Source of the DNA: a virus
Reading direction: 5' to 3' (one strand)
Virus genome (UHGV): UHGV-0192852
DNA length: 44,464 bases
Shown: positions 112-40,727 of the stretch, piece after piece
How the letters are laid out: every line of letters starts with the position of its first letter
How positions within the stretch are numbered: the stretch's first letter is position 1
Program-made: the position numbers and the translations under genes
Notes under the pieces: model-generated
Databases searched by the model: none
Seen by the model: only the letters and a program-made list of their open reading frames with translations
What the model was told of the DNA's origin: nothing

Positions 112-259
112 TTATGTGTCCTCGTGGTTGGTGTGCAACCAATATAATGCAACCAACATCCGCAATGCAAGCGAATTTTGCGATTATTTTTATCGCTGAT
201 AATATTAAGGCGTGAAGTCAAGCGGGTGGCCCGCTTTGCCACAATCCCAGGGGGATAGC
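112..259. promoter_or_regulatory. divergent promoter/operator region between the 254-aa minus gene and the scaffold gene
   Basis: TGCAACCAA motifs at 134..142 and 148..156; minus-strand reading gives TTGCAT-N18-TATATT (170..141) followed by GGTTGCACACCAAC and AGGAC RBS. Confidence 0.5.
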
Positions 260-5033: not shown

Positions 5034-5049
5034 ATTGGAGAATACTACA

Positions 5050-5412
5050 ATGGCTAAAGCACCACTCTTTACACTTGACCCTAAGCCTACCTTTAAGCTG
5101 CCGATTGAGATCCCGCGCCCTGGTGAGAACGAACCAGGCAAAATGACGTTTACCGTACGCCACCGCCCGATCGACGAATTTTCGCAGACCATGCAGGACA
5201 CTGAGCGCAAGCTGTCGGAATACGACGACAACGACCCGGAAGGCTTTAACGTTATGGTCGAGGCCATCATGCACGTCGCTGAAGGCTGGAATCTGCCAGA
5301 TGAATTTAACGCGGAGAACGTCCGCCGCCTGGTGGTTAACTACCCTCGCGCGTTCGGTGTGTTCCACACGTCGTACTATCTCGAACTGATGGGTCTGCGT
5401 GAAAAAAACTAA
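5050..5412 (+). CDS. tail assembly chaperone (lambda gpG-like)
   Basis: 120-aa acidic protein between major tail and tape measure genes; GGAG RBS before ATG 5050 (in frame within track ORF 5035..5412); ends REKN*. Confidence 0.7.
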   Translation: MAKAPLFTLDPKPTFKLPIEIPRPGENEPGKMTFTVRHRPIDEFSQTMQDTERKLSEYDDNDPEGFNVMVEAIMHVAEGWNLPDEFNAENVRRLVVNYPRAFGVFHTSYYLELMGLREKN

Positions 5413-5726
5413 TTGAGGCGGCGCGACGCTTTTATGGCCCGCCGCCACCCTCCGAAGATTTAGCCGCAAGTTTATGGGGTGCGGCCCCCGAAGATGTTTG
5501 TCCGCCTGTTGCGCTATGGCCCGACAACGCGAAGGTAGTCGCCGTCTTCACGGATTGCTCCACGCAATGGCGCACCGGATTCGGCGGCGCATACGGCATC
5601 GACTACGGCGTACTGGAATGGCTATTTAAGATGCATGGCATCGAAAACGCACAACGTGCGTTTAAAGATATCAAGCTAATGGAACGCGTTGCGCTGGATG
5701 AAATGGCGCGGCAGAACCCCGCATAA
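5050..5726 (+). CDS. tail assembly chaperone G-T fusion made by programmed -1 ribosomal frameshift
   Basis: slippery heptamer A_AAA_AAC at 5403..5409 just before the G stop; the -1 frame is open with no ATG for 105 codons (LIEAARRFYGPPPPSEDL...DEMARQNPA) to TAA at 5724..5726. Confidence 0.6.
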
Positions 5727-5730
5727 CGAA

Positions 5731-5990
5731 GCGGGACAGGCGGGACGTCCCGTTTTGTCCCGCACCTCTAAAAACTGCATATTTACCCACCAACATTGCA
5801 TAAATTAAAAACGGGACAGGGGTGCTGTCCCGATCTGTCCCACCCCCAAATTGTGAATATCTATTCTGTTTTCGTGCATAAAACAAACGGGACAAAAAGC
5901 GGGACAGACAAGGGGCGGGACAAAGCGGGACAGCACCCTGTCCCTGCCAGTGCTGCCGCGGGGTTTAGCCGATCGGGACAGCGGGACAGC
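5731..5990. repeat. array of GCGGGACA(G) octamers in both orientations (copy A)
   Basis: about 14 copies of CGGGACA / TGTCCCG incl. palindromes CGGGACGTCCCG and GGGACAGGGGTGCTGTCCC; 5887..5945 nearly identical to 33738..33795. Confidence 0.8.
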
Positions 5991-5994
5991 ACCC

Positions 5995-6042
5995 CAGTCT
6001 TTCAGACTAGACGGGGGTCAATGGCCCCCTCGTCTGAGACTG
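5995..6042 (+). other. conserved 48-nt imperfect palindrome/hairpin (copy A)
   Basis: CAGTCTTTCAGACTAGACGGGGGTCAATGGCCCCCTCGTCTGAGACTG; outer CAGTCT/AGACTG, AGACG/CGTCT and GGGGG/CCCCC pairings; near-identical copy at 33846..33894. Confidence 0.75.
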
Positions 6043-6110
6043 AATAAGGTTTGTTTTAAATTCGCTGATACAATAACCGACGGCAACTGCATAAAAAGGG
6101 GGACTGCATA

Positions 6111-8753
6111 ATGGCAGATCAGGCAGCGGGCATCACGCTAAAGGCGGACGTCGCGCAAATTAAAACGGCTAATACTGTGCTGGACACATTTGCGCAGAAA
6201 TCCGAGAACACAGAACAGAAAGTAAAAAAATTAAACGACACCCTCGGCAAGTCGAAAAAGGTTACTGGCGACGCCGCGGGCGGAATGGAAAAGTTAGCGA
6301 CTGAATCGCAGCGCGCCGCCGACGGCATGACGAAACAGGAGCGACTCGCCAGCCGATTAGGCATGTCGACCAAAAACCTGGGATTCGCATCGCGGAACGC
6401 CGCATTCCAGTTACAGGATATCGCGGTTACGCTAGAGATGGGTATGCCGGTGCACCGCGTCATGCTTCAGCAGCTACCACAGCTAACCGGCGCATTTGGC
6501 GGACTGGGTAACACGCTGCGATATGTTGCAGGCTTCCTCGGCCCAGTAGGGATCGGACTTGCTGCCGTAACGGCGACGTTAGGCGTGGGCGTGGCAATTA
6601 CGTCACGGGCAGAGAACCAAGTGGCGGCGCTTAATAAGACGCTGGCGCTGTCCGGTAATATCTCCGGCCTCACAGCTAACCAGATCCTTGTGCTGTCCGA
6701 GAACGCCGAGCGCATGGGCGGGTCATTTCGCAAGACGCGTGACACAATCCAGGCGCTGGCGGCGGCGGGTGTGAAAGCGGGTGGTGACTTCGGCGCATTG
6801 GCTAAGGTAGTTAATGACTTTGCGAAGGTGTCCAGCCAGCCGATCGAGGATGTGGTAGCGGCGGTGGCGAAGCTGTCAACCGACCCCGTTGGCGGACTGC
6901 GTGCGCTGGCGGATAAGTATCACGTCGTAAACGAAGCGCAGATCCAGCAGGTACAGTCGCTCGTTGATGCGGGTCGTGAGACAGACGCAGTTGCGTTGGC
7001 TAACAAAACAGCCGCGGCGTCGTTCACCAGCATGACCAATGAAATCAAGTCCAACATGGGTACGCTTGAGCGGTCGATGAACGTCGTCACATCGGCAGCC
7101 AAATCGATGTGGGACGCTATCCTGGATGTGGGTCGCGCGCAGTCCTCCAATGAATCCGAGATGAAAGCGCGCGAATCACTGCAGCGGCTGACCACGGCTT
7201 ACTATGCCGAGATGAAAGCGGTAAACGCTGCCGGTGGGGTAATGACTGAAGCGCAGAAAGCACGTATTAACATGCTTTACAGCGAACTGGTCGCCCAGGA
7301 AAAAGTGGTGGCGTCGCTCACCCTGCGTAACCGTGCTGAGCGAGACAACGCCCGCGCCGCAGACGAATCCGCAAAGGCGAACGAGGAGGCCAACCGCACT
7401 GCCCGTGACCGCGCCGCGTTCGAGAAGGAATACGCCACCAACGCTAAGAAGCGCGCCGACGAGATCGCCCGCCTCAATTTGCTGAATAAGCGCGGCGTTA
7501 TTGATGAGAAAGAACTAGCCGAGGCGGTTAAGCAGGTCAACGAGCGCTACAAAGACCCCGCCCCGAAGAAGGCCGCGGCTGTTCGTGTGGATGCCGGTAT
7601 GAAAATGCTGGAAGTCGCACGGAGCGAACTGGCCCAGCTTCGAGAATCAGGCAAGCAGATCGAAGCCAACGCGTCTACGCAGACCCGCACGCAACGCGCT
7701 CAAGCGGCCTTAAATAAGCTGATCGCCGACAATGAGCAGCTAATTGCCGCGAGCAAAGAAAGAGCACTAACGGCAGCAGAAAAGCAGCAGATGGTCGAAT
7801 TCGGACGCGTGAAGGAAGTGCGCGAGCAGATCGTCGAAGAAGCCAAATTGCTGGACGCGAAAGAGAAGCAGGTTAAGGCGCACGCGCAGATCGATGCCTT
7901 CGTTAAGAACCAGAACGCCGAACTAAAAGCCACCGCCGCGGGGTATGCGCTTTCCACTCGCGAAGCGGCAAACCTGCGTGAAGAATTGCAGCTAATTGAC
8001 CGCCTGAAGCGGGTTGGCGCTAACGATACCGATATAGACAAGGCGGTGTCTAAGCTGCGCGAAGTGCAGGAAGCACAGACCGGTGCTAACGCCTCGCTAT
8101 GGGATGGCTTCAGCCGCGGGCTTAAGGATAGTGTGGATGATATGGGTAACGGATATACGCAGATGACGACGCTCACAAAATTCACGTTCAGCGCTATGCA
8201 AGACACGATGAACGAGTTTTTCGAGACGGGCAAGCTGAACGCAAAGGATATGGTTAAGTCCATCCTTAGCGAATTAATCAAGCTGGCTACCTCACAGGCT
8301 TTCAAGTCGATCGTTAGCGCTTTTGGTGGCGACGGCGGCAAAAACGGATTGTTCGGCGCTATCTTCTCAGGCCTCACCAAGAATGCGGACGGCGGAGCGT
8401 ACGCAGGAGGCAATCTCGCGGCCTATTCGGGGAAAGTGGTAAGCCAGCCTACCTTTTTCAGTTATGGCGTCCAGGCGTTCGCTAAGGGCGCAGGATTGAT
8501 GGGCGAGGCTGGCCCCGAGGCCATCATGCCACTGAAGCGCGGGCCGGACGGGAAACTGGGCGTTGCCGCGTCTGGCGCAGGCGGGGGTATGGTCGTGACG
8601 ACTAACGTTTACACGGGTACCGGTAAAACGGATACCAGTGTCAGCGGGCCGGACACCCGTACCGCGCAGGCGTTCGGCAAGCAGATCACCGAGGCGGTGA
8701 AGTCCGAGATCGTGAAGGCAACGAAACCGGGTGGTGTACTTTATAAACGATGA
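6111..8753 (+). CDS. tail tape measure protein
   Basis: 880-aa ORF, coiled-coil-rich with Gly-rich C-terminal part, located after G/G-T chaperones and before the M-L-K-I-J module. Confidence 0.85.
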   Translation: MADQAAGITLKADVAQIKTANTVLDTFAQKSENTEQKVKKLNDTLGKSKKVTGDAAGGMEKLATESQRAADGMTKQERLASRLGMSTKNLGFASRNAAFQLQDIAVTLEMGMPVHRVMLQQLPQLTGAFGGLGNTLRYVAGFLGPVGIGLAAVTATLGVGVAITSRAENQVAALNKTLALSGNISGLTANQILVLSENAERMGGSFRKTRDTIQALAAAGVKAGGDFGALAKVVNDFAKVSSQPIEDVVAAVAKLSTDPVGGLRALADKYHVVNEAQIQQVQSLVDAGRETDAVALANKTAAASFTSMTNEIKSNMGTLERSMNVVTSAAKSMWDAILDVGRAQSSNESEMKARESLQRLTTAYYAEMKAVNAAGGVMTEAQKARINMLYSELVAQEKVVASLTLRNRAERDNARAADESAKANEEANRTARDRAAFEKEYATNAKKRADEIARLNLLNKRGVIDEKELAEAVKQVNERYKDPAPKKAAAVRVDAGMKMLEVARSELAQLRESGKQIEANASTQTRTQRAQAALNKLIADNEQLIAASKERALTAAEKQQMVEFGRVKEVREQIVEEAKLLDAKEKQVKAHAQIDAFVKNQNAELKATAAGYALSTREAANLREELQLIDRLKRVGANDTDIDKAVSKLREVQEAQTGANASLWDGFSRGLKDSVDDMGNGYTQMTTLTKFTFSAMQDTMNEFFETGKLNAKDMVKSILSELIKLATSQAFKSIVSAFGGDGGKNGLFGAIFSGLTKNADGGAYAGGNLAAYSGKVVSQPTFFSYGVQAFAKGAGLMGEAGPEAIMPLKRGPDGKLGVAASGAGGGMVVTTNVYTGTGKTDTSVSGPDTRTAQAFGKQITEAVKSEIVKATKPGGVLYKR

Positions 8754-19952: not shown

Positions 19953-19974
19953 TGCAACCAACCTATTGGTTGCA
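19953..19974. promoter_or_regulatory. perfect 22-bp palindromic operator-like site
   Basis: TGCAACCAA-CCTA-TTGGTTGCA; on minus strand followed by CTATATT (-10-like) upstream of gene 19305..19898. Confidence 0.6.
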
Positions 19975-21460: not shown

Positions 21461-21494
21461 AATATAATGCAACCAATATGGTTATGCAACCAAT
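21461..21494 (-). promoter_or_regulatory. sigma70-like promoter with two TTGGTTGCAT motifs
   Basis: minus strand TTGGTTGCAT-AACCATA-TTGGTTGCAT-TATATTG, i.e. TTGCAT-N17-TATATT; 17-mer CAATATAATGCAACCAA shared with 140..156. Confidence 0.55.
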
Positions 21495-24398: not shown

Positions 24399-24677
24399 CT
24401 ATGCGACCAATTCGGCAACCAATAAATCACAGTCGGCTATGTTGTCAATGACGCGAACATCAGCACCGCGGCGTACCATTCGATCATGTTCACGTACCTG
24501 GTGCGGCCTCGGTTTGCCGCCAGGGCGCTTCACTTCTACGAATACCACTTTGCCGTTTATGATTATAATCAGGTCGGGCGCGCCTGAGCGCCCCTCCCAT
24601 ATCACCTTACGGCAGAATCCGCCAACCGCTTTCACCAGCTTCATCAGGTGACTTTGTACCTTGCCTTCTGGTGTCAT
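24399..24677 (-). CDS. VRR-NUC domain nuclease
   Basis: GAPDLIIIINGKVVFVEVKRPGGKPRPHQ matches PD-(D/E)xK VRR-NUC core (D...E.K...Q). Confidence 0.7.
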   Translation of the reverse strand: MTPEGKVQSHLMKLVKAVGGFCRKVIWEGRSGAPDLIIIINGKVVFVEVKRPGGKPRPHQVREHDRMVRRGADVRVIDNIADCDLLVAELVA

Positions 24678-27946: not shown

Positions 27947-28003
27947 TTTCCAATTCCTCATTTTCACATGTATCGGGGTTATTGTGAGCCACCCCGTTCG
28001 GCT

Positions 28004-28026
28004 TGGTTGCTAATTTACTTGGTTGC
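28004..28026. promoter_or_regulatory. paired TTGGTTGC motifs upstream of SSB gene
   Basis: TTGGTTGC at 28004..28011 and 28019..28026 in intergenic region 27947..28036. Confidence 0.45.
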
Positions 28027-30189: not shown

Positions 30190-30592
30190 TTAATCTTCCA
30201 GTTCGAAATAAGTTTCGACGATTTCTTTAAGATCTTTGTGGAAGTCTTCGACGTCGTCATCTTCCAGCTTGGCGATTGATTTGATCTCGAACGATTCCAG
30301 CAGGTCGTCGAATTCGTCGTTCGCGTCATCATCATCACCGCCTGCAATAATAGCGGCATACTGCTTGATTTCGTCGCGCATTTCTGCCAGCGGATCAGCT
30401 TCTTTCTTACCTTTGCCTTTCGCTTTCTTAGTCTTCGCCGGAGCTTCTTCTTCGACTACTTCTTTTTTGGCCTTAGACGGCTTCTTGTCTTCCTGCTTAC
30501 CCACGGCAGCGCCAACGGTTTCATAATGCTTTGCAATGGTTTCCAGTGCTACTACGCCGCGAGTGATCAGGTTTACGATTTGTTCAAACATG
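30190..30592 (-). CDS. hypothetical Lys-rich/acidic protein
   Basis: ATG 30592 (MFEQIVNL...) with GGAGAT RBS; first gene after the leftward early promoter; acidic C-terminus. Confidence 0.5.
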
Positions 30593-30787
30593 GTATATCT
30601 CCGATTGGTTAAGTTTAGGTGTCGGCAGTTAACTTCGTCGGTGGCCTTAACATATTGCCCGGTTGCGCGTTCTCCCGTTCGGGTAGTGGACCGGGTTATA
30701 TAATCACGGTTGGGAATCCTGACACTTCGATCCGGCCCCTGCGTTGCCCCTCTCCAGTTTGCGTCCTGCATCCTGTCGACGGGGTGA

Positions 30788-30817
30788 ATAATAGATTGGT
30801 TGCAGGATGGGTGTCAA
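30788..30817 (-). promoter_or_regulatory. leftward early promoter (sigma70-like)
   Basis: minus strand TTGACA-N18-TATTAT with a TGCAACCAAT motif in the spacer. Confidence 0.6.
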
Positions 30818-30828
30818 CAACTAATTTC

Positions 30829-30862
30829 AAAAAAAAAGCGCCGAGGCAAAATGCGACGGCGC
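30829..30862 (-). terminator. minus-strand terminator immediately upstream of the leftward early promoter
   Basis: minus strand GCGCCG-13 nt loop-CGGCGC followed by T9. Confidence 0.5.
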
Positions 30863-30994
30863 TAACCAATAAGAGACAATGAGACGGAAAGTATTATTAC
30901 ACGCGTGCGCGCCCGTTTCAATATTCCAGAGGAGTTGACACCCTGCGGTTTTAGGTGTAGTTTCATTGGTCATTAACCAACTGGGGGCAGAACA

Positions 30995-31324
30995 ATGAAT
31001 GTAAACGACGCAATCGAAATGTTAACTAAGACTGTTTGCAGTGAGACTAGCCGGTCCTGGGCGTATACCGATGCCGTGGGTGCGGTGCTATTTGAAATCG
31101 AACGACTGCGCAGTGTCGAAAAAGAATTACGCGCCAGGCTGGAATTGCTCAATGGCACGGCAGCAAGCAAGCTGCAAAAGCACAATGAAGAAATGGAAGA
31201 ATACAAAAAGCAGGTTATCCGTTTGCGCGCCGAGGGTAAATCCTGGGCGATGATTGCCGAGTTGACCGGAATTAATCAGAGCACAGTGCGCTCCTGGGTA
31301 CGCAATAATAAAACTTCTAAGTAA
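30995..31324 (+). CDS. HTH DNA-binding regulator
   Basis: C-terminal GKSWAMIAELTGINQSTVRSWVRN helix-turn-helix; first rightward gene of the control region, upstream of primase. Confidence 0.6.
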   Translation: MNVNDAIEMLTKTVCSETSRSWAYTDAVGAVLFEIERLRSVEKELRARLELLNGTAASKLQKHNEEMEEYKKQVIRLRAEGKSWAMIAELTGINQSTVRSWVRNNKTSK

Positions 31325-31334
31325 GGCCGCGGCA

Positions 31335-33599
31335 ATGAGCTTAATTAAATTCGCTGTAACACGACCCGCTAAAAAAGGCGAAAAAGCCAGGGCGGAAAAC
31401 TTCCAGATGACCACTGATGAATTTTTCGAATTTATCAAAGATGCGAAAGAGATATCGTCGGTGCATATCAATAAGACGGAAGATAAAGCCGAGTATGCAC
31501 GCCGCAAGCGTAAGGCCGATGGCATTGTGGCGTATACCAGTGACGGCTTACGTCGCAAGACCAGTGCGGTGGACCGCTCGATCCTGTTCTTCGATATTGA
31601 CCGTACTGACACCCGCACCCTACGCCGCTGCCGTAAGGCGTTCATCGACGCGGGACTGGAGCACGTCTTCCACACCACAACCGGCGACCGCCACCCGCTG
31701 AAAGGAGGCACGCGTTGCGCCCGTTTCCTGGTGTTAACTGACAAGCCTGTACCGGCGGAAGACCTGGGCCGCGCCCAGTATGCCTTGTTAGCCCAACTTG
31801 GTCTGTCCGATGTGGACTTCGATGATTGCACGAAAGACACAAACCGCCTTATGTACCTGCCCCACCAGCAATCGGTTATTAAGTGCCACTACGGCAAACG
31901 TGCCCGCATCCGTCGTCTGCTTCGCCTGGCTGATAAGCTGGGAGTGGAAAAAGAGGAAGTACGCCGCGAACTAACCCAGGGCGATGACGGCGTGGCGGAC
32001 GGCATTCTGGATTGGTGCTTCCAGGCAGGATTCGAACCGCTGTCGTCCGGTCGTGGTTATGAAGTGCCATGCCCGAACGAACATCTGCATAGTGGAGAAG
32101 GGTCCACCGCAATCATGGTTAAGGATGGCGAGATCCGTTTCAAGTGTATGCACACCGGCAACGAGTGTTGCTCGGAACTGAATAGACACCAGCACCTAGC
32201 GCTACGTCTTATCGGTATCCCTGACCACCTGAACGTCGAACCGCACAACATGTCACGTAAGCAGATCGCCGCCATCCTTCCGGGGCTTGACGACGAGGAG
32301 GTGGAATCGTGCTACGAACATATTGTTGATGCGGTTGGTGACGGCTACGAGTACGGCGAATGTACGGATGCAGACCTGGACAACGAGCCGGTCGCACTGT
32401 TCAGTAAGCACGACCCGATCATCGAAGGCCTGGTTAACTTTAAATCGACATGGTATCTCGCCGGTGAGTCGAACATCGGTAAGTCATTCTACGTGCTGGG
32501 CCAGATGGGCGCTGTTGCCGCGGGTATTCCTTTTGGCGGTGCGAAGGTCGTACAGTCTCATTGCTTCTATTTCGACGCGGAAGGTGGCGAAGCCTCCAAC
32601 CAGCGTAAGGAAGCATTGCAGATCAAATATGAGCACGACCTGGACAAGCTGCACATTATAGACCTGCAATCTCGCGGCTGGGATATCACCAGCAAATCAG
32701 GACTGCGTGAAGTTATCAGCTTCATCAACCGCACCGCTAACGGAGAACCGGTTGGCCTGGTGGCGTTCGACTCACTCAACCAGACTGTTGCGTTGCGGTC
32801 CGCCGATGCTAAACCGTTCGACGAGAACAACGCCAGCGATATGGGCGAAGTGGTCAAAGCGCTGAAGGCCATCGCGGAAAATACAGGCGGCAGCGCTGGC
32901 GTCATCCACCACCCGGCGAAAGGTGCAAACGGCAGCAGAACGCCACGCGGATCCGGCGCGCTTCATGGTGCTGTCGATTCCGCGTTCTTCCTGGAACAGC
33001 CGGACGACAACCAGCCAGGCCAACTCAACCTGTACCATGAGAAGTCACGTAACGGCATCAAGCAAGCGCCGCGTGGCTTCGTTCTGCTCAAGTGCAAAGT
33101 GAAGGTGGATCTACGCAAGTCCGAGGCGTTCGAAGCCCACCAGTCCACCAGCACCGGGCCAGACTTCGGTGATGTGGTTGCCGGTTGGGACGTCAAGCCG
33201 ATTGCATCCACGCCACGCGACGAGACTCTCTACCTCGTACCGGTCGCCCTGGCACCGTTCGCTATCGAACAGGCGAAGGCCGCGGGCAAAGCGGCAGTTA
33301 AGGAAGAGAACACCGCCGGACCGCGCACAGAAAAAGAGAAGGTGCTTTATGCGGCACTGGAAAAACTGATGGAAGATAACCCGGACCATACCGGATTCAG
33401 TAAGTCGGCAATTGTCCGCCAGGCCGGACTCGCGAAAGGTGGCACATCTACGAAGGCGATTGACGATATGGTTGAGCGCGGAGTGTTAGGTTTCTACACC
33501 GACCCGCACACCGGGGCCATCTATGGGTCGTCAAATATCGTCATCAAAACGAATATACCCATCACGCTTTCGGCGACCGACGACGACTTAAGAGATTAA
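31335..33599 (+). CDS. putative DNA primase / replicative helicase-ATPase fusion
   Basis: C-terminal RecA-like P-loop (AGESNIGKSF Walker A, VAFDSL Walker B-like); central Cys/His cluster (CPNEHLH...CMHTGNECC); 754 aa. Confidence 0.55.
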   Translation: MSLIKFAVTRPAKKGEKARAENFQMTTDEFFEFIKDAKEISSVHINKTEDKAEYARRKRKADGIVAYTSDGLRRKTSAVDRSILFFDIDRTDTRTLRRCRKAFIDAGLEHVFHTTTGDRHPLKGGTRCARFLVLTDKPVPAEDLGRAQYALLAQLGLSDVDFDDCTKDTNRLMYLPHQQSVIKCHYGKRARIRRLLRLADKLGVEKEEVRRELTQGDDGVADGILDWCFQAGFEPLSSGRGYEVPCPNEHLHSGEGSTAIMVKDGEIRFKCMHTGNECCSELNRHQHLALRLIGIPDHLNVEPHNMSRKQIAAILPGLDDEEVESCYEHIVDAVGDGYEYGECTDADLDNEPVALFSKHDPIIEGLVNFKSTWYLAGESNIGKSFYVLGQMGAVAAGIPFGGAKVVQSHCFYFDAEGGEASNQRKEALQIKYEHDLDKLHIIDLQSRGWDITSKSGLREVISFINRTANGEPVGLVAFDSLNQTVALRSADAKPFDENNASDMGEVVKALKAIAENTGGSAGVIHHPAKGANGSRTPRGSGALHGAVDSAFFLEQPDDNQPGQLNLYHEKSRNGIKQAPRGFVLLKCKVKVDLRKSEAFEAHQSTSTGPDFGDVVAGWDVKPIASTPRDETLYLVPVALAPFAIEQAKAAGKAAVKEENTAGPRTEKEKVLYAALEKLMEDNPDHTGFSKSAIVRQAGLAKGGTSTKAIDDMVERGVLGFYTDPHTGAIYGSSNIVIKTNIPITLSATDDDLRD

Positions 33600-33603
33600 A
33601 ATT

Positions 33604-33687
33604 TGCGCGCATTGGTTGCCATGTTGGTTAATTTCTGCGCGCATTGGTTGCCAAATTGCGTGTTTTTAGCTGGTAGTATTGGTTGCC
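33604..33687 (+). promoter_or_regulatory. direct repeats carrying three TTGGTTGCC motifs
   Basis: TGCGCGCATTGGTTGCCA at 33604..33621 repeated at 33636..33653; third TTGGTTGCC at 33679..33687. Confidence 0.6.
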
Positions 33688-33737
33688 GTTCGGTGTGATT
33701 ACTATGAATAGTTATGCAATAAAACTGCATAAACTAA

Positions 33738-33840
33738 GCGGGACAAAAAGCGGGACAGACCAGGGGCGGGACAAAGCGGGACAGCACCCCCGTCCCGCCC
33801 CGGATGACGCGGCCTGGCGGGGAGCGGGACAGGCGGGACA
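33738..33840. repeat. array of GCGGGACA(G) octamers (copy B)
   Basis: GCGGGACAAAAAGCGGGACAGACCAGGGGCGGGACAAAGCGGGACAGCACCC almost identical to 5887..5945; further copies to 33840. Confidence 0.8.
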
Positions 33841-33845
33841 ACTCC

Positions 33846-33894
33846 CAGTCTTTCAGACTAGACGGGGGTCAGTGGCCCCCCTCGTCTGAGACTG
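33846..33894 (+). other. conserved imperfect palindrome/hairpin (copy B)
   Basis: CAGTCTTTCAGACTAGACGGGGGTCAGTGGCCCCCCTCGTCTGAGACTG; two differences from copy A. Confidence 0.75.
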
Positions 33895-34054
33895 CATAAA
33901 ATCCGGGGATTGCAAAATACACGGCAGCATGTTGCGGATTGCGGTCGTCGACGAACCCGGCAACCAATGCGAGTTGCAGAATGGAGAGTGAAAAATGCAG
34001 TTTGCAGTTACAGCAGATAGCGATCAACTTTTTCATGCGCGTGATTAATATTGG

Positions 34055-34097
34055 TTGCATTCGTGCCAGCACCCTGCTAGATTGGTTGCACACCAAC
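34055..34097 (+). promoter_or_regulatory. sigma70-like promoter with conserved leader element
   Basis: TTGCAT-N17-TAGATT followed by GGTTGCACACCAAC and AGGAC RBS; same architecture as the minus-strand promoter at 170..141. Confidence 0.55.
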
Positions 34098-34111
34098 ATG
34101 AGGACCGAACA

Positions 34112-34402
34112 ATGAAAAAACTAATCTGGAATTACACAATGGCCCTGGCGAAGCCGGTCGAAGTGAAACACACAAACGGCAGCGCACCAGAGGCGTTCAT
34201 GACCGCTCCGGCCTGGCATGCGATCATTAACGCGACCGCGGGCATGGAAGACCCCAAGCCGTTGCGCGCGGCTATCAGGGCTTACGCGCTGGCATTTGCC
34301 CGCGAGCGCCTGGCATATCGCTTCGGTGTTGGCGATAAGGCAGTGACAAACATCGCCCGGATTAAAGCCCAGCGTGAGCTATTCGCCCAGCTTGAGAAAT
34401 AA
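34112..34402 (+). CDS. hypothetical protein
   Basis: ATG 34112 (MKKLIWNY...) with GAGGA RBS, in frame within track ORF 34055..34402. Confidence 0.5.
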   Translation: MKKLIWNYTMALAKPVEVKHTNGSAPEAFMTAPAWHAIINATAGMEDPKPLRAAIRAYALAFARERLAYRFGVGDKAVTNIARIKAQRELFAQLEK

Positions 34403-37140: not shown

Positions 37141-37179
37141 TTGACTTGCAACCAATTATCAGACCATACTGCGACCAAT
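37141..37179 (+). promoter_or_regulatory. promoter/operator region with TGCAACCAAT and TGCGACCAAT motifs
   Basis: TTGACT at 37141..37146, motifs at 37147..37156 and 37170..37179, upstream of AGAGGA RBS and small ORFs. Confidence 0.45.
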
Positions 37180-38681: not shown

Positions 38682-38705
38682 GCCTGCCGATTTGGTGGGC
38701 TTTTT
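38682..38705 (+). terminator. putative terminator
   Basis: GCCTGCC-GATTT-GGTGGGC stem (two G-U pairs) followed by TTTTT. Confidence 0.35.
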
Positions 38706-38719
38706 TGTGCCTGTTATAA
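38692..38719 (+). promoter_or_regulatory. promoter with extended -10 upstream of terminase operon
   Basis: TTGGTG-N16-TGTTATAAT (TGn extended -10 at 38711..38719). Confidence 0.45.
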
Positions 38720-38790
38720 TCCACCTTAGATGGCAGGGCCGTCTCCTATGTTGCCGATGGTCGGCGCATATGAACAAAAGGGCTTATATC

Positions 38791-39342
38791 ATGGCAGAAA
38801 TCAAAGTTAAGGGCCGACGCGCCAAACTGGACGGACGAGTAGCAGTAACCCCGCGCCGTAAACCAGGCGAGCAAACAGAGCACACCAATCTCGGACCTGA
38901 AATCGAGTACGGAAAGCGCCGTAAAGGCGGAAAATGTGGACGCCCTACTGACTACCGATCCGTTTACTGCGACCAGCTTCGCCGCTATTTTGCCGACGCC
39001 GACGCCTGGCAGGTAAACTACTCCGATAAAGGCGCTGCGCAAGTAATCCCCCGCAACAAAATGCCGACCTTCGGTCGTTTTGCCGCAGAAATTGGTGTGG
39101 GCGTAGCTTGCCTGTATCGCTGGGCGCGTGCGCATGAGGAGTTCGCCGAGGCGATGGCGGACGCTATGGAGTTGCAGAAAACTTTCCTGATGGAAGCTGG
39201 CGGCGTGACCATCGCGGCAGGCTTCGCTACGTTCCTGCTTAAAGCAAACCACGGCATCCGGGACGATGTACCGCTGGATGACGACGAAGATGATAACGGC
39301 GACGTCGTTGTCGAACCCACCGGCAAAGGTCAGGGTGAGTAA
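38791..39342 (+). CDS. terminase small subunit
   Basis: 183-aa protein immediately upstream of and overlapping terminase large subunit; AAAGGG RBS; HTH-like FGRFAAEIGVGVACLYRWARAHEEF. Confidence 0.6.
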   Translation: MAEIKVKGRRAKLDGRVAVTPRRKPGEQTEHTNLGPEIEYGKRRKGGKCGRPTDYRSVYCDQLRRYFADADAWQVNYSDKGAAQVIPRNKMPTFGRFAAEIGVGVACLYRWARAHEEFAEAMADAMELQKTFLMEAGGVTIAAGFATFLLKANHGIRDDVPLDDDEDDNGDVVVEPTGKGQGE

Positions 39343-40727
39343 TGCGCAACTATGCGGCAGAACACCGCGCACTCGAACGCGCGATTGCAAAGCGCAACCG
39401 ACCGCCGCGCCCTACGCGTGTTGCGCAGGCCGTCCGCCTGTATCAGCCTGATTGCCTTCCGCACCAGGTGGAACTACTGCGCGACACTAAGACTAAAATC
39501 CTCGGTCTGTGTTCCGGCTTCGGCGGCGGAAAGTCCTGGGTAGCGGCACGTAAGGTTATCCAGCTTCTGACACTGAATCCCGGTCACGACGGAATTGTGA
39601 CAGAACCGACTATCCCACTCCTGGTTAAAATCATGTATCCGGAGCTGGAGAAGGCTTTCGATGAGGCTGGCTTCCGGTGGAAGTTCAACAAGCAGGACAA
39701 GATCTATAGCGTGCTGGTGAAAGGCAAATGGACGCGCGTTATTTGTGAGTCAATGGAGAACTATACCCGCCTTATCGGTGTTAACGCCGCGTGGATTGTT
39801 GCCGATGAGTTCGACACCACGAAGCAAGACGTTGCAATGGCGGCGTATCACAAATTGCTAGGTCGTCTGCGTGCGGGCCTGGTGCGCCAGTTTGTCATCG
39901 TGTCTACGCCTGAAGGCTACCGGGCGATGTACCAGATTTTCGAAGTGGAGAAGGATAGCCAAAAACGTTTGATCCGGGCGAAGACTACCGACAACCACCA
40001 TTTACCGGCGGACTTTATCGACACGCTGCGCAGCCAGTATCCGGCAAACCTGATTGACGCGTACCTTAAAGGCCTGTTTGTCAACCTCACATCCGGCGCG
40101 GTATACAAAATGTTTAACCGCGAGGAGAACGCCAGCACCGAGGAAGTGCTACCGAATGATACGTTGATTATCGGTATGGACTTTAACGTCACTAAAATGG
40201 CGGCGGTCGTGTACGTCAGACGGCAGCGCATCACGGAGAACAAGGAGTTCCGCGACGAGATTCACGCCGTGGATGAATTTGTGGACCTGTTTGACACCCC
40301 GGCTATGATTGAGGCGATCGAGGAGCGCTACCCCGATCATTGTGCTGCCGGTCGTGTTGTCGTTTACCCGGATAGCAGTGGCAAGTCTCGTAAGACGGTT
40401 AACGCATCGTCATCCGATATCGCGCAACTGGAAGATGCGGGCTTCGAGGTGGAATATGACAGCGTTAATCCACCCGTGAAAGACCGATTGATCGCGATGA
40501 ATACGATGATGTGCAACTCGAAGGGCGTGCGCCAGTATTTTGTCAACCTGGATAAATGCCCTACACTAGCGAAATGTCTGGAACAGCAGGTTTACGACCT
40601 GAAGAAAGGCGAGCCGGATAAAACCGCCGGTGTGGATCACATGAACGATGCTGCGGGCTATCCAATTGCGCACCTGTTCCCAGTGATTCGTCCAATCGCC
40701 GTTGTTCCAACTGTAGACTTCTACTAA
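39342..40727 (+). CDS. terminase large subunit
   Basis: 461 aa with Walker A-like GLCSGFGGGKS and ATPase/nuclease layout; precedes portal. Confidence 0.85.
   Translation: MRNYAAEHRALERAIAKRNRPPRPTRVAQAVRLYQPDCLPHQVELLRDTKTKILGLCSGFGGGKSWVAARKVIQLLTLNPGHDGIVTEPTIPLLVKIMYPELEKAFDEAGFRWKFNKQDKIYSVLVKGKWTRVICESMENYTRLIGVNAAWIVADEFDTTKQDVAMAAYHKLLGRLRAGLVRQFVIVSTPEGYRAMYQIFEVEKDSQKRLIRAKTTDNHHLPADFIDTLRSQYPANLIDAYLKGLFVNLTSGAVYKMFNREENASTEEVLPNDTLIIGMDFNVTKMAAVVYVRRQRITENKEFRDEIHAVDEFVDLFDTPAMIEAIEERYPDHCAAGRVVVYPDSSGKSRKTVNASSSDIAQLEDAGFEVEYDSVNPPVKDRLIAMNTMMCNSKGVRQYFVNLDKCPTLAKCLEQQVYDLKKGEPDKTAGVDHMNDAAGYPIAHLFPVIRPIAVVPTVDFY

Follow-up and report, generated by a model that had tools for sequence, protein, structure and literature searches.

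The window analysed here (the whole stretch of 44,464 nucleotides of virus genome UHGV-0192852) carries plus-strand genes from 30995 to its end, continuing from 1 to about 18.6 kb, and a minus-strand block running from 30771 to 18687 that includes the DNA polymerase and exonuclease genes. The phage thus encodes its own exonuclease, together with a gp2.5-like single-strand-binding/annealing protein, and its terminase genes lie at 38692-40727. The neighbourhood of region 33738-33894, which follows the primase-helicase gene, matches 159 phage records, nearly all of them from Escherichia phages of the genus Dhillonvirus (HK578 / SSL-2009a type), with 85-92% identity. The original prediction had placed a candidate replication origin in this region and had named absence from close relatives as an observation that would speak against it; the element was present in all the relatives examined. 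The annotated Dhillonvirus records examined bear no feature at the array site except one "terminator", our literature search found no published map or prediction of a Dhillonvirus origin, and a search for the repeat motif itself returned primer sequences only. The array thus adds a case without annotation to a type of element that is already known.

The replication operon upstream of this region encodes a small HTH protein and a primase-helicase (Table 1). In the latter, Pfam recognised AAA_25 only (residues 357-531) and NCBIfam gave no match; its primase domain is of the AEP fold, and a winged helix is confidently predicted towards the C-terminus. Sequence and modelling thus indicate that one polypeptide combines a primase, a RepA-type (AAA_25) helicase and a DNA-binding winged helix. 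The protein ends in an acidic tail, ATDDDLRD (33576-33596, residues 748-754; DDDLRD in relatives), which is conserved down to relatives of 43% identity and recalls T7 gp4 and gp2.5, whose acidic C-terminal tails contact the polymerase. The small HTH gene is found at the same position in all relatives, with a family that varies (HTH_3 in phiEap-2, L125, L126 and L149), and the small HTH proteins also diverge between groups of phages with different repeats. The protein encoded at 30995..31324 is a possible alternative binder of the repeats described below. The repeat of phiEap-2 is nearly that of the window, yet the small HTH proteins of the two are unrelated (HTH_3 and HTH_23, respectively), so that the winged helix is favoured as the reader. 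A ParB-like binder was considered as well, an HTH_ParB gene being located at the divergent position in L149, and was set aside because the window gene there (30190-30771) is unrelated and has no Pfam match.

The anatomy first described for the region was confirmed. The primase-helicase ORF ends at 33599 and the first octamer lies 139 bp past its stop codon, in line with the distance of about 140 bp given by the original prediction. The octamers, of which it claimed at least six, are six exact copies of GCGGGACA on the plus strand, at 33738, 33750, 33766, 33776, 33824 and 33833, all within 103 bp, and the reported 48-nt imperfect palindrome is a 49-nt imperfect hairpin at 33846-33894, which begins 247 bp past the stop codon. 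The inverted copy is indeed present, but matches at 7/8 positions (GTCCCGC at 33792-33798); several relatives have it in exact form (TGTCCCGC). The array was also rightly said to be non-coding, since the overlapping ORFs match no PHROG family and relatives carry 1-nt indels that break the frame. Exact GCGGGACA occurs 15 times in the window against 2.08 expected, a count that 0 of 100 shuffles reached; for the core heptamer CGGGACA, 21 copies compare with an expectation of 6.5. Directly before the array, 33698-33738 is the least stable 40-bp duplex of the 44-kb window in nearest-neighbour energy, and it ends at the first repeat. Folded as DNA, the hairpin has an energy of -13.2 kcal/mol (z = -3.5 relative to shuffles); it comprises about 20 bp, and its bulges are conserved on one arm only among the aligned copies. 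We refer to this cassette as copy B.

Other short sequences were noted around the arrays. CTGCATAA occurs six times in the window against 1.1 expected and brackets the arrays (33725-33732, 33892-33899, 6087-6094 and 6104-6111), TGCATAAA stands 5 nt ahead of the first repeat in each cluster, and in the window, phiEap-2 and L124 the sequence after the hairpin is (C/A)ATAA. In an alignment that includes L120, L128, L130, L131, L132 and L142, the genome L137 is devoid of most of the part aligned to window positions 33600-33640.

Table 1. Positions of the genes and of the cassette components in the window.
Feature	Position	Strand	Remarks
Extra upstream part of copy A: two clusters of direct and inverted (C)GGGACA (5731-5763, 5812-5845)	5731..5845	.	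Conserved in 10 aligned A copies
AT-rich spacer between the upstream clusters	5764-5811	.	5769-5809 ranks 16th least stable
AT-rich stretch, copy A	5846..5887	.	Homologous to 33698-33737; ranks 10th least stable
Iteron array, copy A	5888..5988	+	CGGGACA at 5888, 5900, 5916, 5926, 5974, 5982; spacing near that of copy B
Hairpin, copy A	5995..6042	.	Almost identical to that of copy B; -13.2 kcal/mol, z -3.5
Small HTH protein, 109 aa	30995..31324	+	First gene of replication operon; Pfam HTH_23 / Sigma70_r4_2; phrog_9366
Primase-helicase, 754 aa, proposed initiator	31335..33599	+	AEP primase ~1-210, Zn motif ~246-279, AAA_25 helicase ~346-600, winged helix ~666-740, acidic tail
Element after primase-helicase stop	33611..33687	+	Copy number 1 to 3 among Dhillonviruses
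Putative DNA-unwinding element, AT-rich, copy B	33698..33738	.	Holds 13-mer GAATAGTTATGCA (33706-33718) and CTGCATAA (33725-33732)
Four direct GCGGGACA iterons, copy B	33738..33783	+	Invariant in 15 aligned B copies; spacers vary
Inverted iteron GTCCCGC	33792..33798	-	7/8 match
Two more direct iterons, copy B	33824..33840	+	At 33824, 33833
49-nt imperfect hairpin, far end of copy B, then CATAAAA	33846..33894	.	DNA fold

The cassette is not unique in the window. Nine of the other octamers are grouped at 5731-5988, and about 190 bp are duplicated, 5846-6042 corresponding by alignment to 33698-33894. This second cassette (copy A) has the same order of parts, namely the AT-rich stretch, four repeats, a divergent middle, two repeats and the hairpin; repeats and hairpin are almost identical between the two copies, and the middle is about half identical. 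Its AT-rich parts rank 10, 12 and 16 among the least stable non-overlapping 40-mers of the window. Copy A is located between the gene of a tail assembly chaperone (Phage_TAC_4 at 5035-5412) and the tape-measure gene (6111-8753), downstream of a frame which lacks a start codon and is open from 5403 to 5726, in keeping with a frameshift extension of the chaperone. Both copies are kept in most Dhillonviruses, and two exact copies of the 5' arm of the hairpin were found in 13 of 16 Dhillon-like IMG/VR contigs. When 25 copies from 14 genomes were aligned (15 B and 10 A), the heptamers were invariant and the spacers variable. Across these 14 genomes, orthologous copies were 89-91% identical and A and B about 82-83% identical to each other, with a small but significant excess of A-B identity within genomes (83.2 vs 82.3%, permutation p = 0.005). 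The duplication would therefore be old, with both copies kept and little gene conversion between them. Past the hairpin of copy A, by 24 nt, an extended -10-like sequence, TGATACAAT, lies at 6066-6074 and is conserved in 10/10 aligned A copies; from its sequence, it may serve as promoter of the tape-measure and downstream tail genes.

Comparison with more distant phages indicated that the layout outlives the sequence of the repeat. Nine lineages whose primase-helicases are 43-68% identical all have a non-coding gap of 360-650 bp after the gene (9/9), and eight of the nine, the window included, have a repeat array in that gap. The repeats are of at least five different types (CGGGACA, CGGACAA, TTGCGAGT, TTCCGCACA, GGGGGAGA and GGGAT-type). 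CGGGACA and the same hairpin are retained in close Dhillonviruses and in the 68% identical lineage (L124, L024), while Enterobacter phage phiEap-2 (43%) has nine copies of CGGACA(A) in 300 bp at the same place, CGGACA being the most clustered hexamer of its genome; the parts follow each other as in the window, and the hairpin differs in its inner sequence. The other lineages, at 44-48% identity, use TTGCGAGT (L125, L146), TTCCGCACA (L148), GGGGGAGA (L149) or a GGGAT-type repeat (L126, L147). Hairpins of other sequence at the same place in phiEap-2, L124 and L125 gave z values from -2.9 to -3.5. Simple repeats were also seen: a (CACACG)n-like stretch lies between the hairpin and the next gene at 12590-12615 of L124 (68% identical lineage), and L101 and L110 have CA- or TA-rich simple runs inside their arrays. 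In Jerseyvirus SETP3, whose helicase is 32% identical, no array follows the gene and a convergent HTH gene and a terminator are found there; the layout does not reach that distance.

Judged from sequence identities, the repeat tracks the winged helix better than it tracks the helicase core. Between phiEap-2 and P0037, which have different repeats, the helicase is 85% identical and the winged helix 38%; winged helices were 54-57% identical in pairs with a common repeat and mostly 20-44% identical otherwise. P0015 illustrates the same point, with a helicase nearer that of P0028 (77%) and a winged helix nearer that of P0018, with which it shares its repeat (54 vs 44%). By contrast with the repeats, the 13-mer GAATAGTTATGCA of the AT-rich stretch survives in phiEap-2 and L149 despite their different repeats (33706-33718 in the window, 39928-39940 in L123, 3835-3847 in L149). 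As this 13-mer is kept across phages with CGGGACA, CGGACAA and GGGGGAGA, its reader is probably not the factor that binds the repeats, and might be a host factor or a conserved portion of the primase-helicase. A diverged version of this 13-mer was noted in copy A, at about 5851-5864.

Arrays of the same motif were also found far outside this group. A scan of IMG/VR (2.9 million contigs) for two GCGGGACA within 12 bp yielded 120 loci, among which we defined a dense class of 36 loci without DNA similarity to the window and with six or more CGGGACA in 300 bp, and a control class of 62 loci with two or three motifs. In 15 of the 36 dense loci, and in none of the 62 control loci, the array coincided with the 3' end of an AAA_25 helicase gene or lay immediately past it (Fisher p = 3e-8); these AAA_25 genes are 23-29% identical to that of the window in the helicase core. 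Further arrays follow genes for DnaB, for DUF5906 (which we take to be an SF3 helicase family), for Toprim-NTPases and for Walker-A NTPases without Pfam match. In 15 of 23 such loci the array adjoins the least stable 1% of the locus, which is the absolute minimum in seven of them; many of these unrelated arrays end in a G+C-rich palindrome with flanking inverted repeats, and inverted copies of the motif occur in them as well. Common ancestry of the motif was considered and rejected, because the scan selects any array that uses the octamer, several helicase classes are involved, and the winged-helix motif KKAFxRA shared by the other AAA_25 proteins lies in a helix that the window protein does not have. 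These loci may thus be regarded, from their sequences, as a sample of origin-type arrays in general, in which the same motif need not mean the same binding domain, and identity of the motif may be due to chance among 2.9 million contigs. In L021 (10184-10322), L060 (1315-1453), L014, L028 and L081, the array overlaps the last codons of the AAA_25 helicase frame, so that some of the repeats may be intragenic in these phages, an arrangement known from lambda O and SPP1 gene 38. An unrelated viral contig, L098, has about 20 tandem 15-bp units (TGTCCCGCGCAGACC and variants) at 6663-6960, which resemble a pentapeptide repeat within a coding sequence more than an origin; the scan picked this contig up solely because of the common octamer.

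A second motif, (A)TTGGTTGC, is dispersed over the window, with 17 exact 9-mers and 26 when one mismatch is allowed, against 12 expected. Twenty-one sites were located, for example at 135-157(-), 19954-19973, 21469-21494(-), 24403-24423(-), 28002-28026 and 30795, and further at 33611/33643/33678, 33960(-), 34050/34081 and 37148-37179(-). Most of them lie between genes, frequently as pairs with a distance of 11-35 bp, and several of these pairs overlap with sigma-70-like promoters, such as TTGCAT-17-TATATT on the minus strand at 21469-21494. Variants (TTGGCTG, GTTGGCAGC and GCGGCCAAC) occupy the same places in relatives, and from this distribution the motif looks like an operator or promoter element. 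Past copy B, a 37-aa ORF at 34002-34112 matches phrog_23498 (function unknown) and corresponds to orf54 in SSL-2009a; as it overlaps a promoter-like region with two ATTGGTTGCA motifs, this gene call is doubtful.

In our view it is fairly probable that the phage initiator binds the cassettes and that these act as replication origins or as sites of origin control. The original proposal of a candidate origin beside the initiator gene was indeed favoured by every in silico test able to refute it, namely conservation, invariance of the repeats, position of the least stable duplex, presence of a winged helix and co-variation; the anatomy, the conservation, the co-variation and the domain folds are computed. 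On the other side stand genome-wide indicators: cumulative GC skew simply tracks the direction of the genes and locates no origin, its minimum falling near 30-31 kb and not at 33.7 kb, and DnaA boxes (TTATNCACA, one mismatch allowed) are not enriched, with 32 in the window against 26 expected and none in copy B. A plasmid collection gave two weak helicase matches and no replicon of such a type. A role as terminase or pac site was rejected, as the terminase genes are far from both copies.

A different account would make the cassette a boundary between transcription units, with the repeats as operators for a phage regulator, for example the small HTH protein, and the hairpin as an RNA 3' end, a stabiliser or an RNase III site. 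Both copies do lie between gene blocks, at probable borders of transcription units, and are oriented with transcription, and promoter-like sequences were seen by eye past each of them (TTGCAT-17-TAGATT at 34054-34082 past copy B, and the conserved TGATACAAT past copy A). The conservation of bulges on one arm only of a hairpin of this length makes a role in RNA, as a 3' end or RNase III site, possible, and the small HTH proteins diverge between repeat groups too. However, the hairpin is followed by CATAAAATCC and not by a T run, no intrinsic terminator (G+C-rich hairpin and T run) was detected in 33400-34300, no sigma-70 promoter scored above threshold around copy B, and the same scans around copy A returned only two minus-strand hairpins formed by the inverted iterons. 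A strong terminator in copy A would moreover be costly, since the flanking tail genes are normally expressed together. The motifs stand in both orientations in copy A, phiEap-2 has the repeat in common with the window while its HTH protein is of another family, and such a boundary would leave unexplained why an array adjoins the least stable DNA of the genome and why arrays follow replicative helicase genes in unrelated phages. We therefore regard this account as unlikely. Structured non-coding RNA, of about 160 nt and in two copies, with GGGACA motifs that bind or titrate a protein, appears very improbable. The plus-strand RNA of 33735-33900 folds to -76.9 kcal/mol (z = -2.8), both copies have the same orientation, and the hairpin is kept in relatives with altered sequence; but it is the heptamers that are conserved and not base pairs, inverted motifs occur in copy A and in other phages, the scanner found no promoter or terminator, and wholesale replacement of the repeat with the layout kept is what is expected of a protein-DNA code. 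In line with this, the covariance models of Rfam 15 gave no usable match, neither in the window at gathering score nor in the region at E up to 1, where one chance hit fell outside the array.

It could also be that the primase-helicase binds the repeats solely to regulate its own gene or to arrest forks, and that replication starts elsewhere, for example in the divergent region at about 30.8-31.0 kb, or by recombination. Such a start would fit the GC skew minimum, which coincides with the divergence of the gene blocks at about 30 kb, and the exonuclease and gp2.5-like annealing protein are typical of recombination-driven replication; the oriR of SPP1 has likewise been proposed to be a fork barrier (PMC6316719). 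Against this, GC skew is confounded with gene direction, the intergenic stretch 30772-30994 has a single ATTGGTTGC motif and no CGGGACA cluster, and all components expected of an origin, among them the DNA that melts most readily, are present in each copy of the cassette; we regard this account as distinctly unlikely.

If the cassettes are indeed origins or origin-control sites, the array would be the part of this Dhillonvirus origin to which protein binds, and the following course of events may be proposed. The early operon would supply the HTH protein and the AEP-primase/RepA-helicase/winged-helix protein, and the C-terminal winged helices of several protomers would bind CGGGACA, gathering subunits for assembly of the ring. 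The resulting strain would open the adjoining AT-rich stretch at 33698-33738, on whose single strands the helicase would load itself while the AEP domain primes for the phage family-A DNA polymerase. More speculatively, the hairpin at the far end might form in single-stranded DNA and mark a loading or priming site, or else it may merely be the 3' end structure of the operon transcript. Copy A, with 5846-6042 and the repeat clusters from 5731, would bind the same protein; it would be a second origin or, alternatively, a bound site at which forks are controlled or stalled.

These cassettes may be of practical interest, as HK578 and its relatives now serve as test phages for defence systems. HK578 mutations that allow escape from OLD were mapped to gp46, which is this same helicase-primase, and to the gp45-gp46 operon promoter, and OLD was proposed by the authors to sense origin hairpins, the HK578 origin not being located in that study (bioRxiv 10.64898/2026.07.10.737580); we count this in favour of the origin reading. 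The candidate origin pair offers a concrete place to look in such studies. From a wider point of view, one protein and about 200 bp of DNA may suffice as a minimal replicon, and the natural series of swapped repeats and winged helices would provide a ready-made specificity code. A more ambitious scheme, which the sequences would allow but which we hold to be doubtful, is that of a Dhillonvirus two-site system, in which copy A would be bound by the same fused initiator as a second origin or as a programmed fork barrier (circle-to-circle to concatemer), the cassette hairpin and palindromic repeats would be the structures sensed by OLD in HK578, and the combination of AEP primase, RepA helicase and winged helix with iterons, AT-rich stretch and hairpin would constitute a self-contained phage replicon of wide occurrence, in which joint swaps of winged helix and repeat determine specificity. 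If copy A is a fork barrier, the SPP1 model of the switch to concatemer synthesis would be extended to a Gram-negative phage.

Among known systems, satellite phage P4 was the one invoked by the original prediction. P4 alpha is one multi-domain protein with primase, helicase and C-terminal DNA-binding domain, and ori and crr are separated sites with the same short repeats in direct and inverted orientation, crr having been shown to act as a bound control site. The window likewise has two separated sites of the same repeat, 5731-5988 and 33738-33840, and the comparison thus holds as an analogy of layout. It does not extend to homology: the helicase of P4 alpha is of the P4/D5 (SF3) type, Pfam found no D5-type domain in the primase-helicase, and with its AAA_25/RepA-type helicase and AEP primase the window protein is not a homologue of P4 alpha. 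The comparison with RSF1010 is based in part on a PDB match, 3H25. At the oriV of this IncQ plasmid, RepA, RepB' and RepC are separate proteins and two ssi hairpins lie on opposite strands, whereas the window has one fused protein and one palindromic hairpin per cassette. The lambda origin also has four or more repeats beside an AT-rich region and is encoded with its initiator, but its iterons lie inside the O gene, and O, which has no helicase or primase of its own, recruits host DnaB via P.

The archaeal plasmid pRN1 offers a further parallel. There, a small regulator gene precedes a Rep protein with AEP, helicase and winged helix, an essential stem-loop lies just after the rep gene, and the same layout is found in some phages (PMC4234260). 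The window resembles pRN1 (orf56/orf904) in its AEP primase, its winged helix, its small upstream DNA-binding gene and a stem-loop 3' of the gene that is conserved as structure. It differs in that pRN1 has an SF3 helicase and no iteron array, its stem-loop alone being sufficient, while the window has an AAA_25 helicase, and repeats and an AT-rich stretch before a shorter hairpin of 49 nt. As regards the arrangement of sites, Bacillus phage SPP1 offers a parallel: it has two origins with the same repeats and an AT-rich element, one in the initiator gene and the other interrupting a block of morphogenesis genes that is conserved otherwise, and the bound second site was proposed to stall forks and to trigger the switch to concatemers (PMC6316719). 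SPP1 uses a separate binder (gp38), a loader (gp39), a DnaB-type helicase (gp40) and host DnaG in place of one fused protein, and its oriL lies inside gene 38 while the window array lies after the gene; we make no claim of sequence homology. In both SPP1 (oriL/oriR, gp38) and the window, one site is in or next to the initiator gene and the other within the morphogenesis genes, at a distance of about 13 kb on the circle in SPP1 (PMC6316719) and of about 16.6 kb between the copies of the window.
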